Source: a virus. From it: DNA of 64,000 nucleotides. This document shows positions 9,209 through 35,122 of this stretch, in pieces (positions within the stretch are counted from its first letter, which is position 1; every line of letters begins with the position of its first letter). The position numbers were made by a program, and so were the translations under genes. The stretch is taken from positions 32,001 to 96,000 of the IMG/VR virus record IMGVR_UViG_3300025168_000033, one strand, 5' to 3'. The notes beneath the pieces were generated by a model. The model was not told the origin of the DNA and ran no database searches. It saw only the letters and a program-made list of their open reading frames with translations.

Positions 9209-9580
9209 TTATTTCTTTTTTATGTCATCATGTTTAGGCTTTGGTCCTTTACCTTTTAACCAATCTGCAATATCTTTATCCGCAGTTTTATATGCAGTTC
9301 CTTTTTCTGTAAATACCGTCATTCTAGCATTACCCCATGCATTAAATGCAGCCGGCTTTCCTAGCTTTTTTATGTGTGGTCTTACAGCACCCCAGTTAGT
9401 AATTGCTGCACCATATCCTCTTAAAAATGCTGCCATTAATGCATATTCTAAATCTTTTGCATTTTTAGCTCCTAATGATTTTTGTAATTTTGGATCTTTT
9501 GAAAGTTTTTCTGCTCTTGATTCTGCTGCACTTTGCTTTGCTTCATTCAAGAATTCATCATACGATTGTAAATTTTTCAT
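9209..9580 (-). CDS. tagged protein, DUF5824-like motif
   Basis: MKNLQSYDEFLNE; F.RG.GA......RP....W..AR pattern. Confidence 0.5.
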   Translation of the reverse strand: MKNLQSYDEFLNEAKQSAAESRAEKLSKDPKLQKSLGAKNAKDLEYALMAAFLRGYGAAITNWGAVRPHIKKLGKPAAFNAWGNARMTVFTEKGTAYKTADKDIADWLKGKGPKPKHDDIKKK

Positions 9581-10242
9581 ATTGTATATTGTGCTTTTGG
9601 TAGATTTTTTTTAGCAAATGTAATCCAGGTTTTAAGTACCTTATTTCTTTCAGTTTTAGTCATTAATTTTTGATCGATAAAATAATCAAGATATTCATTA
9701 AATACATCATTTAACGGTCGCTTTTCTGTTTTTGCTTGACGATACATTCCGTTTGCCATTGCTGGAACTTCATCCTTTAATAGAAAGTATTTATATAGAT
9801 TTCCTTTATCTCCGCTTATTTTATTTCTAATAATCGATCCAGTTATTTTAACCTTACTTGGACGTCTATTTTCACCGCCTTGAGTTAAATGTTCTATTTC
9901 ATGCCTAGCTGCATCCTGTAAAACTGCATTTAATTTTTGATAGCTTTGCGGTTCTTTAGCCGGATCCAAAGTAACAATAAATTCTATACCATTTACTGAT
10001 GGATAAGCACCAGCATCAACAATAACTCCTCGAGAATTTGATACCGCTTCACGTTTTATAAATAATTGTGCGTCATCAATAAATACCTTATCATTAAATT
10101 CACCTAAATCAAATTGTAACATTTCATGCTCTCCTTTAGGACTTGTTAATTTGATTATTGGCCAAATAGCATCTACTATTTCACCGGCAAGTTTATCATA
10201 ACTTCCTTCATTTAAGAATTGATTGTAATTTTTATATCTCAT
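9577..10242 (-). CDS. tagged zincin-like metallopeptidase
   Basis: MRYKNYNQFLNE; HEIEH zinc motif plus downstream YF...DEVPA glutamate. Confidence 0.6.
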   Translation of the reverse strand: MRYKNYNQFLNEGSYDKLAGEIVDAIWPIIKLTSPKGEHEMLQFDLGEFNDKVFIDDAQLFIKREAVSNSRGVIVDAGAYPSVNGIEFIVTLDPAKEPQSYQKLNAVLQDAARHEIEHLTQGGENRRPSKVKITGSIIRNKISGDKGNLYKYFLLKDEVPAMANGMYRQAKTEKRPLNDVFNEYLDYFIDQKLMTKTERNKVLKTWITFAKKNLPKAQYTI

Positions 10243-11027: not shown

Positions 11028-12797
11028 TTATCTACGACTATTTCTTGATAATCTAAGAGCTGGTAATGCATTATCTACAAGTGTAGCTTTATGACTATCA
11101 ACAACAACATATTGATTTAATATGAATGGTTGTTTTTCTTCTTCAATGCTTTCAGTAAATACTCTTAAATTTGTAAGTGAAATTTCACCACCATGCAATT
11201 CATAATATGTATTAGCTGGTTTTTGCGCACCTATTGAAATAGATTTTGTTTCACTAAATACTAATTTTAAATCTGTTGTTTGTGCTGTAGTTGGATTATT
11301 TTCATGTAAAGTCGGATTATATTTCATTTCCCATAAATATACAGATCCTTGAGAATATTTATTTGATAGATTTACAACTAACCCATACCACTTATTTGTG
11401 CTTAATGCAGTAAACGGGCCGTATGAATATGATGTAGCACCTATTGTTACATTTATTCCTGTAGTTCCTGTAGCACCAGCTCCTGTAGTATGTGCAAGAT
11501 CGATTGAAATTCCTGTAGTACCGTCAGTTCCATTTATTATTTTTGATGATGTTGCCCCAGTAGCTCCCCATACAGTTTTAGAAATATTGAACCATCCAGT
11601 ATAAGCTCTATTATCTGTAGCTTTTATGTCTACAGCTTTTTTATATTTTACAGCCAATGATCCGGTTGTAACAGTATTTAATTGATATCTGTATTTAGCT
11701 ACAATTGTCCAATAGTTATTGATGTCCTCATTATCAATTTTAAGTAATGTGCTCATCTCGGATCTAATAAAATCATATCCGCCTGTGCTAATAACATTAT
11801 ATTGTAACGGCTTTGTAACTTCTAGAAATTCATCATTGCGTTCAACACCTAATATTTCTTCAAAGTCATTAGTCAGATCTTCTACTATGGTATCAACGGC
11901 ATCTGTTCGTTTTACATTTTTTCTATCCTGCCATTTACGTAATGAAACTTTATAATAGATTCCTTCCTGCATAAAATCTTTAAAAAGATATGCGGAATTT
12001 ATTTCATACATTCTATCGGTCAATGGAAAGTATAAATAATCTCTTTCTTGTGGCCTTGCAACCTGACCGAATACAGTTTCAAATACTTCCTTTACAATAT
12101 GAATTTCAAAGTCCTGTTCAAAATCCATGTCAAGCGGTCCAAAATTTATTGCATTTTCTGGAAATTCATTATCGGGTACAACTATTTTTATTTCTTTTAC
12201 GTCAGTAACATCATATAATGAATATTCTCTAAGAATAACGTCTTTAGATCTTTGTTGTGGATCTACTTTAAAGTACTTTACACAATGTCCAAATAAATCA
12301 GAAATTCCTAATGCTAGCTGTTCCTGAAGACAGGCAGCTTTGGATGCAGTTTCATAAGGATTCCATAGATTTTTATCACATTTTATTCGTACTCCAGCAC
12401 AAAAATTTGGCTGTCCACAAGCTGTACCGACTGGCGGTAATTGAACAGTTTCAGTATTATTTAAAGTTATATTTGTTGTAATAGATTCTACTGAAAGATT
12501 TCCTATTCCAGTTCCTCCACGAGTATATCGATATTCTACCCAGATATCAGTTCCAGCAACACCTGGAATTCCATTAAATGAAGTAGCACCAGTACCAACT
12601 AATGTACTCCAAGCCGAGAATGAAATTGAATCATCCGACCATCTAAATTCTTTAGTAAAAAATTTATCTGAAGTTTCACCGACAATAACATCACTATAAG
12701 AATCTATAGATAGTACATCTAAATATGCACTATCAAATGATATAATTATTACTTCGCCTGTGGTTGTGGTATTTGTAGTACCTGAGATTGTAGGCAT
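11028..12797 (-). CDS. neck protein gp14-like with N- and C-terminal (LamG-like) extensions
   Basis: D.ILRE, FG.D.EQDFEIHI.K..F...FG..RPQERDYLYFPL..RMYEI; beta-rich C-terminus; late promoter at 12813-12821. Confidence 0.65.
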   Translation of the reverse strand: MPTISGTTNTTTTGEVIIISFDSAYLDVLSIDSYSDVIVGETSDKFFTKEFRWSDDSISFSAWSTLVGTGATSFNGIPGVAGTDIWVEYRYTRGGTGIGNLSVESITTNITLNNTETVQLPPVGTACGQPNFCAGVRIKCDKNLWNPYETASKAACLQEQLALGISDLFGHCVKYFKVDPQQRSKDVILREYSLYDVTDVKEIKIVVPDNEFPENAINFGPLDMDFEQDFEIHIVKEVFETVFGQVARPQERDYLYFPLTDRMYEINSAYLFKDFMQEGIYYKVSLRKWQDRKNVKRTDAVDTIVEDLTNDFEEILGVERNDEFLEVTKPLQYNVISTGGYDFIRSEMSTLLKIDNEDINNYWTIVAKYRYQLNTVTTGSLAVKYKKAVDIKATDNRAYTGWFNISKTVWGATGATSSKIINGTDGTTGISIDLAHTTGAGATGTTGINVTIGATSYSYGPFTALSTNKWYGLVVNLSNKYSQGSVYLWEMKYNPTLHENNPTTAQTTDLKLVFSETKSISIGAQKPANTYYELHGGEISLTNLRVFTESIEEEKQPFILNQYVVVDSHKATLVDNALPALRLSRNSRR

Positions 12798-25897: not shown

Positions 25898-27736
25898 TTA
25901 AATTTTGTTTGTTTTGAATCGTTTTGCTAATCCTTCAGTAACTGCATCCATATAAGAACTTGTAACTTTAACTTCGTTTATCGATTCAGAATTTGCAATT
26001 GCAGATTCATTAATCGGTTGAATTATTTCAGATCTCAAATCTCTTGTCGACCAAAAATGATCGATTTGATATTGTGATTCTAAAACACTAACAGAAGCTT
26101 GTAATTTAATTTCTTCTTGTTTGCTTTCACTTAAAGAATCATAAGACTCTTTATATTTAGCTGGGATATTTTCCAACCAATTTAAAACTTTAGGTTCGGG
26201 TGTTGTTGCTGATTCCCATATTCTTTCAACATCTCTAGTTCCGAAGTATTTGTTATTTTTAAATGCAAGTATCAAGTCACCTTGAGAGCTTTCATTTAAT
26301 TTTGCAAATTCACTTCTCTTAGATTCCGTTACAAAATGTAGGAAATGCAAGTCCTTATCTTCAGTTACTGCTTTTTGCTTCTTAGCAGATTCAAGTAAAG
26401 TATTTATCTTAGTACTGATATCATTCTTAAAGTTATCATTACTTTCTATAATTAAATTTTCTTTAGGTTCCGATTGCTTACTTATTCTACCATTACCTTC
26501 ATTAATTAATTTTGCACCGTTAAGTTCAGCAAAATTTTCATTAATATCGTTAATAGAATGTTCGGTATATGAACCTAGAGTTTCTAGATTTTCTTTAATA
26601 TATTCAGTAAAATTAGCAACATGTTCCATGTTCTCAACAATATAATCGTTATGAGAAATAAGAGTATCTACTGATTCATTAATTGTAGTTTGATATTCAA
26701 ATCTTGAATTAACTTCTTCACTAATGTGTTTAGAATATTCAATTGAATTATCAACTGATTCAGCAACCATTTTACTATATTCGATTGAATTATCAAGGTT
26801 TTCAGCCAATGATTTACTATATTCAATTCCTTGATCGGTCTTAAGAGCAACCAATTCACTATAATCTTTAACTGATTCAAGACCTTCAACAATATAATCA
26901 TTATGTGCAATTAGGTTGTCTGTATTTTCTTCAACCTTATTGATTTTTGAATTCATTGAATTTACTTCCTTAGCAATAGTTTCAACCCACTCTACAATTT
27001 GTGATTGTTCCTTTGTATTATTAGAAGGTATATCAGATTCGTTTATAGATTTGATTGATTCCTGGATCTTATTGAATTGTTCAGTGATATATTTTGAATA
27101 TTTATCGAACTGATCCATTGAGATGAATGATTCACCTTTAGTTTCGTTTATTGCAACTTCTGGTGCGTCAACTTGAGTTAAACCGTTATTTGTGTTATCC
27201 ATTTCAAATATTTGTATTGTATCGTCGTTTTGTAAGCCAAATGATTCATTGACTCTGTTTAATTGTGCATTTTCAAATCCTGGATCTGCAACCAAATCAT
27301 AAGTAAATAATCTTTTAACTTTTACATGATTATTTGATTCAACAACACCAGCTGCTCTAGATGAAATATGTATTGGAACTCCTGCATCAACTAATGCCTT
27401 TGCTTGTTTTCCAGCATCAGTATCAAGTAGCTTAATTCTACCTCTTACTTGTTTTGAAGATTTATCGTAAGATATTTCTTCTATAACATGTGATACATTT
27501 TTTAATGATACTTCGAATTGTTTTGGATGATCCAGTTCTCCTAGAATTTTTCTATCTTTAACTTTTTTAGCTAATTCTTCCACATGAGGAACAAATTCAG
27601 CTTCATCGTAAATTCGATTGTTTTTATTTTTTGTGCCTATTTCCGAAAAAATTCCTTCCAGTATATAATCGCCATTAGCGGTTTTCTGGAATTCTGCCTC
27701 AGAAACTGATCTTTCAAGAATCAGTAAGTTTTTCAT
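25898..27736 (-). CDS. gp21: prohead protease (gp21) fused to scaffold/core (gp22-like); start likely MKNLLILE at 27736
   Basis: LEGIF, NKNNRIY, LGELDHP, VSH.I, ISSRAAG, YDLVADPGF; long helical repeat C-terminus; late promoter at about 27769-27779. Confidence 0.88.
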   Translation of the reverse strand: MKNLLILERSVSEAEFQKTANGDYILEGIFSEIGTKNKNNRIYDEAEFVPHVEELAKKVKDRKILGELDHPKQFEVSLKNVSHVIEEISYDKSSKQVRGRIKLLDTDAGKQAKALVDAGVPIHISSRAAGVVESNNHVKVKRLFTYDLVADPGFENAQLNRVNESFGLQNDDTIQIFEMDNTNNGLTQVDAPEVAINETKGESFISMDQFDKYSKYITEQFNKIQESIKSINESDIPSNNTKEQSQIVEWVETIAKEVNSMNSKINKVEENTDNLIAHNDYIVEGLESVKDYSELVALKTDQGIEYSKSLAENLDNSIEYSKMVAESVDNSIEYSKHISEEVNSRFEYQTTINESVDTLISHNDYIVENMEHVANFTEYIKENLETLGSYTEHSINDINENFAELNGAKLINEGNGRISKQSEPKENLIIESNDNFKNDISTKINTLLESAKKQKAVTEDKDLHFLHFVTESKRSEFAKLNESSQGDLILAFKNNKYFGTRDVERIWESATTPEPKVLNWLENIPAKYKESYDSLSESKQEEIKLQASVSVLESQYQIDHFWSTRDLRSEIIQPINESAIANSESINEVKVTSSYMDAVTEGLAKRFKTNKI

Positions 27737-27819
27737 ATTTGTAGGTTTATTTTTAGCTTGGCTATTTGTTATATATATCAAGTTCACATTTACAAATGTG
27801 GTATCATTTTATAATACTT

Positions 27820-30022: not shown

Positions 30023-30496
30023 CTATTTGAATCCATTAAAAAATCCTTCAGTAACAATCTTAAAAATATATCCGCGACTATCACACCATTTTTTAGCTGC
30101 GGCAAACTTTGCCATATTTAGAATATATTGTTCAGACAAATATTTAAAGTTTTTAATTGTTTTAGGAGTTTTTCTTTTAGGTTGTTTAGGTTTTTTAATT
30201 TGAGCTTCCGGCTTTACTTCTATTACAAGTTTCTTACCATCATCCAATAACATAAAGAAATCTGGATGATATTTAGAATACTTTTCTCTTAGTGGATTCC
30301 AATATTTTATTTCAAACGGTTCAGATGACCATTTAATTACTTTAGCATTTGATTCACAATAAATACAAAATTTTTGTTCCCAGCTACTTCTATAAATAAT
30401 AGGACCGTTACCAATATATTTAGCACATTCATTCAACGGAAAATATCCTTGTTTGAATCTGGATTTTTTGGTTGGCTTATTATTCTTTATGCTCAT
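30023..30496 (-). CDS. gp4: head completion nuclease (TnsA-like)
   Basis: KY.G....YRSSWE.KF...C......WSSE, Y.PDF, IEVKP, AK..AA..WC. Confidence 0.9.
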   Translation of the reverse strand: MSIKNNKPTKKSRFKQGYFPLNECAKYIGNGPIIYRSSWEQKFCIYCESNAKVIKWSSEPFEIKYWNPLREKYSKYHPDFFMLLDDGKKLVIEVKPEAQIKKPKQPKRKTPKTIKNFKYLSEQYILNMAKFAAAKKWCDSRGYIFKIVTEGFFNGFK

Positions 30497-31578
30497 ATTT
30501 TAATATCACCTATTGACGCACCAACTCGAGTTTGAGCTGCATCTCCCCATTCAATTTGATTATTAAAATATGTGCTTGTAAATTTGTGTATTTGTTCAAA
30601 ATTTGAATCTTTACAATTTAATGTACACAAATGTTTTCTGTCATTAGTAGTAGTAAATAGCCAATCAAATCTTTCTTCTCTATAATATCCGTCTAAATGA
30701 ATAGCGGTTATAATTGCTTTAAGTTTATTACTTGCCTTTGATGAATTCGCTTCGTTTATGAATACAGTACTAATATAATTTACAGTTGTTTTTGATAATA
30801 ATTCGTTACTAGCGGTATAATTAGATAATGCTACTATAAGTTTTTTAGTAAGGAGCTTTGTTTGATTTATATCTAATTTTTGAATTGTATCTGAAAAAGT
30901 TTTGGCTAAATCAAGTAATGCACCTGGCCCAAATGATTTAGTTTTAGATTTCCAAGAAACACCATGAGGTTTAAATGCCTTCTGTATTTCTGATTCAGAT
31001 TTAGACCAGTTTTTAGTATTTTTTGTTCCGCCAAGACGACCTCTACGTTGCTTAACTTCGATCAATTCATTATTTGGACCTTTTATATCACCACCAGTTG
31101 TAGAATTACTAAAATGTGATAGCATACAATAATATAATTCTGTACGACCGACTACTGGTAATCCAAGCCCTGATAATTCTATTAATTTTTCAAAGAATTT
31201 TTTATCAAATAAATGAGCAAAATGATTTTCTATTTCTGCTAACGGTATATGACCGCCATTAGTTGGATTTAATTTAAATTCATTTTTTGATGGATTAGCT
31301 AACCAATTTAATAAGTCATTATCATTACCAATAAAATGTTTTTCCATAAGATTTAATATAACAGGTATATTAGATTTAGGAATTTTTTTATCATCCAAAA
31401 AATTACCTATTGGTCCTTTTAGATCTGGTATCAGTATATTTTTAATTTGAGTAATCTTATTAGAATCTTTAGTTGTATCTAATTGTCCTAATGTTATTTG
31501 ATCGTTTTTTATTGTATCTAAATTAACATAATTCAATGCCTCGGATAAAAACTCACTATAATTTTTGTATCTTCCCAT
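30493..31578 (-). CDS. tagged PD-(D/E)xK endonuclease-like protein
   Basis: MGRYKNYSEFLSE; VGRTEL...GGDI......IEVK...GRL; late promoter at 31593-31601. Confidence 0.55.
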   Translation of the reverse strand: MGRYKNYSEFLSEALNYVNLDTIKNDQITLGQLDTTKDSNKITQIKNILIPDLKGPIGNFLDDKKIPKSNIPVILNLMEKHFIGNDNDLLNWLANPSKNEFKLNPTNGGHIPLAEIENHFAHLFDKKFFEKLIELSGLGLPVVGRTELYYCMLSHFSNSTTGGDIKGPNNELIEVKQRRGRLGGTKNTKNWSKSESEIQKAFKPHGVSWKSKTKSFGPGALLDLAKTFSDTIQKLDINQTKLLTKKLIVALSNYTASNELLSKTTVNYISTVFINEANSSKASNKLKAIITAIHLDGYYREERFDWLFTTTNDRKHLCTLNCKDSNFEQIHKFTSTYFNNQIEWGDAAQTRVGASIGDIKI

Positions 31579-32000: not shown

Positions 32001-32030
32001 ATTATATACCAGTCACATGTTATTGTTTCA
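32001..32030 (-). promoter_or_regulatory. middle-type promoter TGAAAC-N16-TATATAAT upstream of gp55
   Basis: same architecture upstream of several replication genes. Confidence 0.6.
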
Positions 32031-32038
32031 AAACCCCT

Positions 32039-32063
32039 AAAAAGCCTAGACGAATCTAGGCTT
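32039..32063 (-). terminator. intrinsic terminator with UUCG loop
   Basis: AAGCCTAGA-TTCG-TCTAGGCTTTTT on minus strand. Confidence 0.8.
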
Positions 32064-32076
32064 CTTGAGTATTTAA

Positions 32077-32373
32077 TTATTTTTTCCAAATATAATATTC
32101 AGCACCGTAATCTTCAAAGTAAATTATTTTGTTTTTAGCATCATAATCGGCTATACGTCCAGGAAAACCAAATGCTATATCATTTTCAGTTGCATTAAAC
32201 ATTTTTTTAACTTTGTTATATGTAGCTATTTCATCGTCATCTTCATCTTGCGAACTAGCAATAAATGCTTGATTAGCTGATTTGATATTCAATTTTTTTA
32301 GAACATACTTTATCTCACTGGGAAGAAAACTAGCATCATTTAATGTATAATTTCCTTTCAATGCTTCATTCAA
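32077..32373 (-). CDS. small domain, probably the -1 frameshift extension of the upstream gene
   Basis: TTG start overlaps an A9 run; frame reads KKSLNE|ALKG. Confidence 0.55.
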   Translation of the reverse strand: MNEALKGNYTLNDASFLPSEIKYVLKKLNIKSANQAFIASSQDEDDDEIATYNKVKKMFNATENDIAFGFPGRIADYDAKNKIIYFEDYGAEYYIWKK

Positions 32374-33632
32374 GCTTTTTTTTTGAGTAAAGTAGATAAA
32401 GAAGCTTGTTCATTATCTAAAGATTCCTTAATAATTACTTTAGCTTGATTCAATTCATCCGATTGTCCTATTTCTGTTTCAGCAGCATAAATATTACCAA
32501 GTTGCTCATTTAAAAATGCAATTCTATCATTGATCAATTGTTTTGATTCGGAAATTTGTTCTTCAAATTTTTCTTCAGTTCCAAGTAATCCAACTACAAA
32601 GTTAGAAACATCATAACATACAAATTCCTTTACCATTGCAACTGCATCAGTAGCTGTAGCTGAATCTAATGTATTAGACATCATTGATCTGTTAATTTTA
32701 TTAACAAATATTGATTCATCCAATTTAACAACATTAGCTGTAACACCTTCATAATGATTAGATTTAATTGTAGTAATATTATCCATTTCTACAATTTTAT
32801 TTGCATGTTGAGATGCAAAATCTATCATTTCTAAAATATGCATTTCATTAAGATAGAATGCACCAGATGCAGTAAGTGTGGATCTAACAGATCCTTCATC
32901 AACTTTAGCACCATTAATAAAAGTTTCACAATTGTCTTCGTTTATAGCGATTTCTATTGCTTGATTTTTATGATTATATTTTAATCTATTGTCAACTATA
33001 TCAAATTTTTCACAGATCTGAACTAATTTATTGAATATTGGCGATGTAGCTTTATCACTTACAGTAATACCGTAATCATCCATTTCATATAAAGTTCCAT
33101 CCATTGCAAAAACAAAAGATTCGTCTTCATTAATTTCTACAGGACTATAAACCTTTCCAACTGTTACATCAGGATTTAATGAATCTACAGAATTTGTAGA
33201 AGATTCAACAACTGAAATTAGATTTTTAATTGCAGGAATCCATGTAGATTCTTGTAATGATATAATCAATTTGTCGGTATTTAATTCCTCAGCCATTAAT
33301 CCTTCTAGAATTGAAATAGCACCGTCGTAAGAATTGAATTTGTTATCCATTTTCATTCCTAATAATGTACTTTCTAATGTTAATTCAACATGATTAGAAT
33401 TAACATCGTTTCTTATTGAAGTACAGAATTCATTAATAGCATCGATCCAATCGTATACTTTAAATTCTCTTAACATGTTAGAGATTAATGAAGTTGTGTC
33501 TACATCATTTCTAAATTTAAATGCATTAGCATATTTCTTTATAATGTTATTTGAAGAATGATTCTCATCTAACATAGACTTTAAAACTTCTAGCTTGTTA
33601 ACTACATCTAGTTTTGTTCTGATATTTGTCAT
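32370..33632 (-). CDS. putative prohead core/internal protein
   Basis: 420 aa with several INE/LNE/xxE sites; GATAAATAA at 33654-33662; in head/neck cluster. Confidence 0.5.
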   Translation of the reverse strand: MTNIRTKLDVVNKLEVLKSMLDENHSSNNIIKKYANAFKFRNDVDTTSLISNMLREFKVYDWIDAINEFCTSIRNDVNSNHVELTLESTLLGMKMDNKFNSYDGAISILEGLMAEELNTDKLIISLQESTWIPAIKNLISVVESSTNSVDSLNPDVTVGKVYSPVEINEDESFVFAMDGTLYEMDDYGITVSDKATSPIFNKLVQICEKFDIVDNRLKYNHKNQAIEIAINEDNCETFINGAKVDEGSVRSTLTASGAFYLNEMHILEMIDFASQHANKIVEMDNITTIKSNHYEGVTANVVKLDESIFVNKINRSMMSNTLDSATATDAVAMVKEFVCYDVSNFVVGLLGTEEKFEEQISESKQLINDRIAFLNEQLGNIYAAETEIGQSDELNQAKVIIKESLDNEQASLSTLLKKKA

Positions 33633-34207: not shown

Positions 34208-35122
34208 TTATTGGGGTGCAGCACCACCTTTTGATTGTGAATTTGGCCAAGTCCCATTATCAATTTCTGGATCGTCAATTGAACTATTTGTAGATTTTTG
34301 ATTGCTTGTAACAGATTCAGATCCCATTTTAAATGTAGGATCTATATAAACTCCTGCGGCTGCTGTAGCTCCTAGTCCAGTAGCACCAATATTATCAAAG
34401 ACCGATATATGAACCATACGATTTCCATTAAACATTTCAGTATTCTCAGCACCAGTGAATCCATTTTTAGCATTTTTAAATACTGGATATGTTACATCGA
34501 CTTCAGTACTAAAGGTAATTTTAAATTCTTTTTTGTCTGATGCTCCTTCACTAAATTCAATATTTCTTTCTAACGCATTTGAATCAGACATACTAAACGA
34601 ACAAGGTAATCTAATACCCGCAACATTTATTTGAAAATTATTTGTTTTATATGTATTTCTTATTATTGATTCCAGCGCTTTAAATTGATCTAGAACAGTA
34701 TCAACAACAATAGTAACATCCATTGAAAGTTTAATTGGAATAGGAATAAATTCTGCATTATAGGTTTTAAGAACACCATTTTCAACCTGCTTATCATAGG
34801 TTCCGCGAACATATTGACTTGTATTTTTTGATGGATCAATATCAACACCACTCATATCTACGTGAGCTCGAGGAATTTGATTATAAACGGTTTCTGCTAC
34901 AGTACAATCTGGATCTGTCAAGATATCCTTTAAAAATATATCTTGCATAAATCTTTCATCTCCTGTAGTAGTAAAGAAAAAGGGAATATCAACTATTTCA
35001 GTTTCCGTATTTGATATTTTTTGTTCCCAACATATTCTATTTTGTAAATGTGCTAGAAATCCAACTATTATGTTTCTTAATAATACATCGTCTTTATTAA
35101 ATTCTAAATCGTATACTGACAT
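34208..35122 (-). CDS. gp15: tail terminator / sheath stabiliser (gp15-like)
   Basis: LRNIIVGF..L, IPF, ERF, PR, P.P..L, D.....E.I; GATAAATAA at 35136-35144. Confidence 0.7.
   Translation of the reverse strand: MSVYDLEFNKDDVLLRNIIVGFLAHLQNRICWEQKISNTETEIVDIPFFFTTTGDERFMQDIFLKDILTDPDCTVAETVYNQIPRAHVDMSGVDIDPSKNTSQYVRGTYDKQVENGVLKTYNAEFIPIPIKLSMDVTIVVDTVLDQFKALESIIRNTYKTNNFQINVAGIRLPCSFSMSDSNALERNIEFSEGASDKKEFKITFSTEVDVTYPVFKNAKNGFTGAENTEMFNGNRMVHISVFDNIGATGLGATAAAGVYIDPTFKMGSESVTSNQKSTNSSIDDPEIDNGTWPNSQSKGGAAPQ

Follow-up and report, generated by a model that had tools for sequence, protein, structure and literature searches.

Two natural alleles of a putative carrier–cargo junction at a run of nine adenines in an uncultured T4-like phage

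We analyzed a 64,000-nucleotide (nt) stretch of viral DNA (positions 32,001 to 96,000 of the record IMGVR_UViG_3300025168_000033, hereafter the window) in which the 3' end of a gene for a 420-amino acid (aa) protein overlaps a 98-codon open reading frame (ORF) that lies in the −1 frame. The source record is a 108,411-base fragment, of 30% G+C, from an uncultured T4-like phage. As judged by comparison with a close relative, the SLNE residues encoded where the two ORFs meet mark a genuine fusion and cleavage-type junction, and a 4-nt TTAC indel next to a shared run of nine adenines (A9), not the length of that run, places the cargo module either in frame or at −1. We consider it about an even chance that slippage adding one A to the transcript, or a −1 ribosomal shift, yields a minor 518-aa fused form in the phage whose cargo is out of frame.

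The junction and its two alleles

In the ORF listing, the 420-aa gene (32370..33632, minus strand) ends in the zero frame with ...LLKKKA and a stop, encoded by tta ctc aaa aaa aaa gct tga, the TGA being at 32372-32370. The A9 tract (32376..32384, minus strand) reads AAA AAA AAA in this frame and contains A_AAA_AAA; it is the proposed site of polymerase or ribosome slippage. The −1 frame from 32388 to 32077 translates to TQKKSLNEALKGNY..., 103 codons without a stop, and across the junction this frame is open over 110 codons in all, reading T-Q-K-K-S-L-N-E-A-L-K-G-N-Y into the 98-codon cargo ORF (32077..32373, minus strand, from the ORF listing). The TTG of this ORF (32373-32371) overlaps the TGA of the 420-aa gene and is the sole start candidate at its 5' end, the first in-frame ATG being codon 58, and the ORF has no leader of its own. 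The initial annotation had described the gene end, the position of A9, the slippery heptamer in the zero frame, K-S-L-N-E-A in the −1 frame, and TTG as the only start of the small ORF, and each of these details matches the sequence and its translation.

The −1 frame codons AGC TTG AAT GAA (32365..32376, minus strand) translate to S-L-N-E and are read in frame in the relative described below (L002). A genome scan showed that ∼30 ORFs of this phage start with variants of MKNLQSYDEFLNE followed by unrelated sequence and that these leaders end in (F)LNE, and the S-L-N-E codons are predicted to be the remnant of such a capsid-targeting leader and a prohead-protease site, with the cut (shown below by a slash) falling after the Glu and before GCA, an Ala codon. 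The predicted mature part of the cargo, ALKGNY...YIWKK, is 95 aa long. Read from the sequence, a tract of A9 leads to a stop, A10 to a fusion, and A11 again to a stop: a stop comes after 1 codon in the zero frame and after K-L-E in the third, and one added A opens a 99-codon continuation. An A10 transcript and a −1 ribosomal shift on A_AAA_AAA would give an identical 518-aa product, ...LLKKKSLNE/ALKGNY....

Past the cargo ORF and before gp55, a terminator-like hairpin, AGCCTAGA-TTCG-TCTAGGCT with a T run (32039..32062, minus strand), closes the transcription unit and is the right-hand boundary of a swappable cargo slot. It was read directly from the sequence, is unlisted by a consensus terminator scan, and is kept both in L002 and in a separately deposited contig of the window genotype (L045). 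An Rfam search around the junction gave no real match.

A protein search identified a 488-aa protein (P0001, P0007) that is 95% identical to the window protein over 420 residues and that spans the identical junction in frame. Its ORF runs ACT CAA AAA AAA AGC TTG AAT GAA G.. through the same A9, giving TQKKSLNE/G, and its C terminus reads ...LSALLTQKKSLNE/GKYNPK..., followed by 64 residues that are unrelated to the window ORF and lack Met; as a whole, the 68-aa tail of the relative is unrelated to the 98-aa ORF of the window. The earlier proposal that SLNE/A is a fusion or cleavage-type junction was thus borne out, as a 95%-identical relative encodes ...LLTQKKSLNE/GKYN... within one ORF. The frames of this allele (L002) mirror those of the window, in that A9 leads to fusion and A10 and A11 lead to stops within 3 codons.

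The two alleles have tracts of equal length, and an identical A9 is present in L045, L002, and L046. They differ just upstream, where alignment with the fused relative places a single copy of TTAC in the window (32387..32390, minus strand) opposite TTACTTAC; because of this 4-nt indel, and not because of tract length, the cargo lies at −1 in one allele and in frame in the other. Over the ∼7 kb of DNA that can be aligned at 95% identity, we found only three indels, namely this one, a 3-nt in-frame indel in gp2, and a 5-nt indel at the right edge of the cargo cassette, and the TTAC indel is the only one that changes a frame. Similarity between the window and the fused relative ends exactly after AAT GAA G and resumes at AAATAATTAAATACTC before the terminator, which argues that the cargo was swapped as a cassette with the end of the leader remnant as its left boundary. 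No paralogue of the cargo of the relative was found in the genome of the window phage.

Each allele was recovered more than once. The split allele is present on three long contigs, and the one that was compared, a 165.6-kb MEGAHIT contig from the European Nucleotide Archive (L045), is base-identical to the window over 7,263 nt, including A9. The fused allele is present in two assemblies (L002 and L046) that differ at six positions; P0007 and P0001, from L046 and L002, differ at residues 359 and 372. A second swapped cassette is the leader-tagged gene after gp55 (window 30493-31578; L002:4687-5808), the flanks of which are conserved: the window has MGRYKNYSEFLSE/ plus a 361-aa body, and in the fused relative MGRYLRFNDYILNE/ precedes an unrelated body of 373 aa, so the leader is retained.

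The A9 tract and the case for slippage

A9 is the only run of at least nine A or T, and the longest homopolymer, in the 108,411-base record, although a first-order Markov model predicts ∼19 T runs and 3 A runs of at least this length. The same model predicts ∼55 runs of 8, and seven were observed. At the codon level, AAA makes up 79% of lysine codons, and the 106 ORFs contain 24 in-frame KKK triplets, 23 of which are broken by AAG; the sole AAA AAA AAA is A9, compared with 11.8 such triplets expected from codon use (binomial tail ∼2e-6, calculated by hand from those counts). By these measures of composition, the presence of the tract is beyond chance. Since there is no other run of at least nine and KKK is otherwise broken by AAG, such tracts appear to be selected against in this genome, and the exception sits where, on translation, a +1 A slip gives a fusion. 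Avoidance of this kind matches the efficient slippage of bacterial polymerases during transcription of 9-base A or T runs (Atkins et al. 2016, PMC5009743) and the sliding of ribosomes along successive AAA codons (Koutmou et al. 2015, PMC4363877).

Of the 189 in-frame slippery heptamers, only the A9 site precedes a long −1 ORF with no ATG start of its own. The heptamers at window position 9609 and at 87577 (the latter outside the window; G000:C1 ∼95,022) were set aside, as their long −1 frames run on into ordinary genes that each start with an ATG. At window 9577-9612, an A8 run (A_AAA_AAT in frame) precedes the stop of a leader-tagged 221-aa gene by 8 codons. The −1 frame stays open from this run into the following leader-tagged gene (9580-9209), so that slippage there would yield a two-cargo polyprotein joined through a full leader. 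This arrangement is probably incidental because the downstream gene has its own ATG.

We propose that the 98-codon ORF is not an independent gene and that it would instead be the C-terminal cargo module of the conserved 420-aa protein, joined to it through the LNE of a former capsid-targeting leader. The module would lie at −1 since one TTAC copy is absent upstream of A9, and normal decoding would produce the 420-aa protein. A minority of transcripts carrying an extra A, or a −1 slip on A_AAA_AAA, would produce the 518-aa fusion. Were the 420-aa protein to enter the prohead, cleavage after LNE by the gp21-type protease would release low copy numbers of the 95-aa protein. The close relative would make the fusion by default, and slippage there would produce the short form, with both other frames stopping within 1–3 codons.

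Several features of the locus agree with this proposal. All frames of both alleles appear to fit a two-product design. A run of at least nine A or T is the threshold for transcriptional slippage that we took from PMC5009743, and A9 reaches it; in addition, one extra A opens a defined C-terminal region and the other frames stop nearby. Transcriptional slippage fits A9 at least as well as, and probably better than, a ribosomal −1 shift, and unstimulated ribosomal slipping may add to it. The residues S-L-N-E/A place Leu at P3 and Glu at P1, in agreement with the rule for gp21-type cleavage (L or I at P3, E at P1) taken from PMC9026906. The cargo has no N-terminal capsid targeting leader of 10–19 residues of its own; LNE alone remains, without an ATG of its own. 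From these features, we infer slippage at a useful rate, packaging of the carrier, and cleavage at the site. The fullest version of this proposal, in which a conserved head-assembly protein carries an exchangeable, leaderless cargo behind a minimal LNE site, with its dose set by slippage on A9 and with a 4-nt indel flipping the system between "mostly loaded" and "rarely loaded," is offered as a tentative possibility.

Several observations weigh against slippage as a programmed event or against delivery of the cargo by its carrier. Slippage is nearly harmless two codons from a stop, where the tract lies, so A9 could be merely tolerated, and 2 of the 4 coding A8 runs in the genome are also near a gene 3' end. 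Tolerance near a stop could explain A9 in the window allele but not in the fused allele, where the tract is 68 codons from the end of the ORF. The tract could also be left over from the A-rich leader of a once separate gene. We found no stimulatory hairpin 5–9 nt downstream of A9 (fold z-score −1.4, 131 nt), and the nearest stem starts ∼17 nt past the tract, in sequence that is replaced in L002; Shine-Dalgarno-type frameshift stimulators are implausible because this phage uses no Shine-Dalgarno motifs. The initial annotation had suggested looking in relatives for a conserved poly(A) followed by variable −1 ORFs. The tract is present in a 95%-identical clade with a different, in-frame tail, and it is absent from relatives at 54–57% identity. 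The tract is thus found in only two genotypes (the window and the clade with a 95%-identical protein), which are too close to show conservation.

Other points of the same kind concern the proteins. The cargo is without relatives beyond one weak match. The 420-aa protein has no recognizable leader and no family or fold match in Pfam, PHROGs, or PDB, its candidate N-terminal site MLDE/N is not conserved in distant relatives, and enrichment of [LIV]xE at the junctions of its family is weak (73% versus a 61% baseline, p 0.008).

Alternative accounts of the frame offset and the origin of the cargo

In relatives at 54–57% identity, the orthologous protein ends in LL(A/T/R)K and a stop, without the tract and without an overlap. 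The slot before the gp55 terminator is empty in two of these loci (L006 and L049), holds one separate leader-tagged gene in another (L050), and holds two in a fourth (L003). The first slot gene of L003, a leader-tagged gene of 133 aa, is a weak homologue of the 98-aa ORF in the window (31% identity, pairwise E 6e-5); the two share the ending ...DYG.E.Y.WKK, and relative to this homologue the 98-codon ORF is fully open and full length. The simplest history suggested by these sequences is that a deletion took out the stop together with two parts of a downstream cargo gene, its A-rich leader and most of its targeting leader, leaving K-rich codons, Ser, and LNE as the remnant. On this history, the TTG would be a leucine codon of the former leader and not a designed start. 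Both small proteins of L003 (L003:1873-2569) have a second or third (I/V)NE site behind the leader (LNE/SITINE/A and TNE/SVNE/SEINE/AEIN), which suggests that they may be trimmed stepwise.

Other searches with the cargo gave no further relatives. Searches for homologues at near and longer lengths returned only the copy of the phage itself and no in-frame version with this cargo; Pfam and PHROGs contained no match for the 98-aa protein, and tblastn against phage records returned none. Pattern scans of IMG/VR found no relatives. A scan of metagenomes with the 19-nt junction returned 38 loci, none of them related by tblastn, and these were rejected as chance matches of a low-complexity word. The predicted structure of the cargo (predicted local distance difference test (pLDDT) score of 54) was too poor for a fold search.

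A recent frameshift with nothing programmed about it is the strongest of the alternatives, and we regard it as somewhat doubtful. According to this account, a fused ancestor lost one TTAC by repeat slippage, an event that restored a near-native C terminus and silenced a dispensable cargo, and any fused product is noise. A 4-nt tandem-repeat indel is a common type of mutation; the short form can evidently function alone, as distant relatives end in LL(A/T/R)K without cargo, and cargo slots are dispensable in that they vary among close relatives. The tract is also older than the indel, because A9 is present in both alleles. Against this account, the 98-codon ORF is still fully open and of full length compared with its homologue, and the genotype is stable enough to have been assembled identically in two deposited contigs. 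This account also has to explain an A9 inside a fused ORF in a genome that otherwise bans such tracts, and some fused product would be expected from A9 in any case (PMC5009743).

It is unlikely that the ORF is an independent small gene, the 98-aa (or 94-aa) product of which is translated from the TTG that overlaps the TGA, by termination-reinitiation, or from another TTG four codons later, with A9 serving as its A-rich leader. The genome does have A-rich leaders and no Shine-Dalgarno motifs, and A9 places A at −3 to −11 of the TTG; ATGA overlaps are present in some gene pairs (e.g. 36812/36809 and 30496/30493), and a gene caller predicted a 94-aa ORF from the second TTG. In opposition to this, the record otherwise has no need of non-ATG starts, because ATG-only gene calling covers 95% of the genome, the 98-codon ORF being one of six gaps. 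Such a product would start with M-N-E-A and lack a targeting leader, which the homologue and the neighboring slot genes carry in full, and the TTG is an internal Leu codon in the fused relative.

An assembly artifact, in which the DNA actually contains A10 or the TTAC repeat and encodes a plain 518-aa ORF, is very improbable even though homopolymers are a classic site of length errors, because the split form is base-identical in the separately deposited contig, A9 is also found in two variants of the fused relative, and the record has no other broken genes (95% coding fraction, ORFs up to 1,201 aa). The A10 assembly error that had been named at the outset as a possible refutation of slippage was therefore judged unlikely.

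Comparable systems and the proposed carrier in its genome

Returning to the proposal of a slippage-gated cargo fusion, T4-type phages pack proteins into the head that are injected along with the DNA, often to counter host defenses. To our knowledge, how the copy number of injected proteins is set and how new ones are recruited are poorly known outside T4. Two natural alleles of one junction, together with cassettes swapped at the leader remnant, provide a concrete case of recruitment by fusion to a carrier. If slippage is true, the locus is also a case of dosing by homopolymer slippage, and if the cargo does ride into the head on its carrier, it would be a natural, tunable version of engineered IPIII-fusion packaging and the first use of slippage in metering an injected protein. 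If one of the alternatives is true, the locus is a fresh frameshift in a dispensable fusion and of modest interest. The finding combines two known kinds of process, homopolymer recoding and T4-type cargo packaging.

For the recoding, the closest comparison is dnaX of Thermus thermophilus, in which tau and gamma arise because RNA polymerase slips on a homopolymer of 9 bases, both other frames having stops; in other bacteria, the dnaX arrangements can be reversed, and a small change swaps which product needs the shift (PMC5009743). The locus in the window resembles dnaX in its run of nine, in two products with a common N-terminal body and a differing C-terminal module, in the nearby stops in non-productive frames, and in having two natural alleles that differ in which product needs the shift. 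Unlike dnaX, it is a gene of a phage head region with a swappable cassette behind a protease site, and the slippage proposed for it is read from sequence.

For the packaging, proteins fused to the C terminus of IPIII of T4 are packaged and processed (Hong & Black 1993, Mullaney & Black 1996, reviewed in PMC9026906). The cargo in such fusions enters the head as a C-terminal fusion and is then clipped, the same route that is proposed here, and as with T4 internal proteins, there is a gp21-type protease, leaders end in L-x-E, and diverse cargo follows the leader. Unlike T4 internal proteins, the cargo in the window keeps only the last three leader residues and would rely on a 420-aa carrier, and unlike the engineered IPIII fusions, this fusion would be natural and gated by a frame offset.

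In phage T7, a minor, C-terminally extended form of the capsid protein (10B, alongside 10A) is made by frameshifting. The tail chaperone G/GT of lambda-like phages is likewise made by frameshifting (PMC5009743). The predicted event resembles both in that a virion-module gene would give a sub-stoichiometric longer product through a shift close to its 3' end. The T7 and lambda cases differ from it in using defined heptamers, often with stimulators, and in having an extension that stays attached and is structural, whereas the extension here is predicted to be cut off and delivered, and its cassette differs between near-identical phages. Frameshifted genes are also rescued at poly(A) tracts, by polymerase infidelity in Buchnera and Blochmannia (PMC5009743) and in Citrobacter tssM (PMC4256274). 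As in those cases, a gene disrupted by an indel would be partly restored through slippage on a nearby A run; unlike the rescue of decayed essential functions, both frames here give sensible products, and the short one is the native form of the family.

The 420-aa protein itself was modeled with AlphaFold2 (pLDDT 81) as an N-terminal helical domain, a central α/β domain, and a C-terminal helical hairpin. A Foldseek search with this model gave no PDB match and ESM Atlas was uninformative; with VIA-align, only the C-terminal hairpin was matched, to generic coiled coils. Pfam and PHROGs had no match for this protein or for 17 members of its family, and tblastn of the protein against phage records returned only one, unannotated, 462-kb record. 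The only structural look-alikes in named phages were in Tenacibaculum phages PTm1 and pT24, where they are annotated as uncharacterised or are misnamed. A small profile run against the whole PTm1 record and a 133-sequence profile run against its first 50 kb found no homologue there, and the annotation of its last 30 kb holds no ORF of fitting length.

A profile search showed that the family comprises 316 representatives at 50% identity, of 420–1,464 aa, which have a common core of ∼400 aa and variable N- and C-terminal additions; 101 of 147 representatives have >40 aa beyond the core. In one subfamily, 14 of the 23 members listed have (I/L/V)(S/T/N)E and then K, A, G, or R in the linker that leads to a conserved small C-domain, and in 24 of 156 family members a short M..(L/I)NE at the N terminus precedes (G/W)(Q)TQVY. 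These sequence features would suit a prohead-processed protein, but [LIV]xE enrichment at the family junctions is weak overall. The prospects that the 420-aa protein is a head core or internal component, again as judged from sequence, are about evenly balanced; the label "core protein" given in the initial annotation is a putative one, and the family has no match in Pfam, PHROGs, or PDB. In relatives, including the 462-kb record LR756500.1, the family gene is likewise located between gp15 and gp55; the locus defines a large, uncharacterized protein family with a fixed position. In that record, a 411-aa ORF resembling TnpB of IS200-605 elements (L052:4728-5963) lies between gp15 and the family member, and synteny is otherwise as in the window.

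Nearly all genes of the window are on the minus strand. In the direction of transcription, their order is gp47, gp46, gp15 (34208-35122), a leader-tagged 159-aa protein, the 420-aa gene, the 98-codon ORF, the terminator-like hairpin, gp55 (31968-31600), a leader-tagged 361-aa protein, gp4, gp2, the portal gp20, the gp21-type protease with a scaffold-like tail, and the capsid protein gp23. The full genome is probably jumbo-sized because CheckV estimates the record to be 37% complete. A Shine-Dalgarno motif was found upstream of 0 of 106 genes in the whole record, and the leaders of the 106 ORFs contain 57–68% A at −9 to −17 and 62% A at −3. A-rich leaders without Shine-Dalgarno motifs and with A at −3, as seen in Flavobacterium, are the Bacteroidota pattern (Baez et al. 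2019, PMC6847099), so the leader sequences point to a host in the Bacteroidota, and the phage probably belongs to a lineage of large phages that infect this phylum.

As for an identity of the 420-aa protein with gp14, the only weak match in the record to PF11649 (T4 neck protein) is in another ORF, and the fold matched in PDB is only a generic helical hairpin. That match is sub-threshold and lies at 11817-12143 (G000:C1:19262-19588), inside a 594-aa ORF that may be the gp14 equivalent.

The gp21-type prohead protease (25898..27787, minus strand; Pfam Peptidase_S77, 42.6 bits versus a cut-off of 27) is the enzyme expected, from its sequence, to cut the SLNE/A junction. It carries a long scaffold-like tail of ∼430 aa rich in (I/L)NE sites, so that protease and scaffold are in one gene, and a comparable gene in Tenacibaculum phage PTm1 is annotated as "prohead core scaffolding protein and protease."

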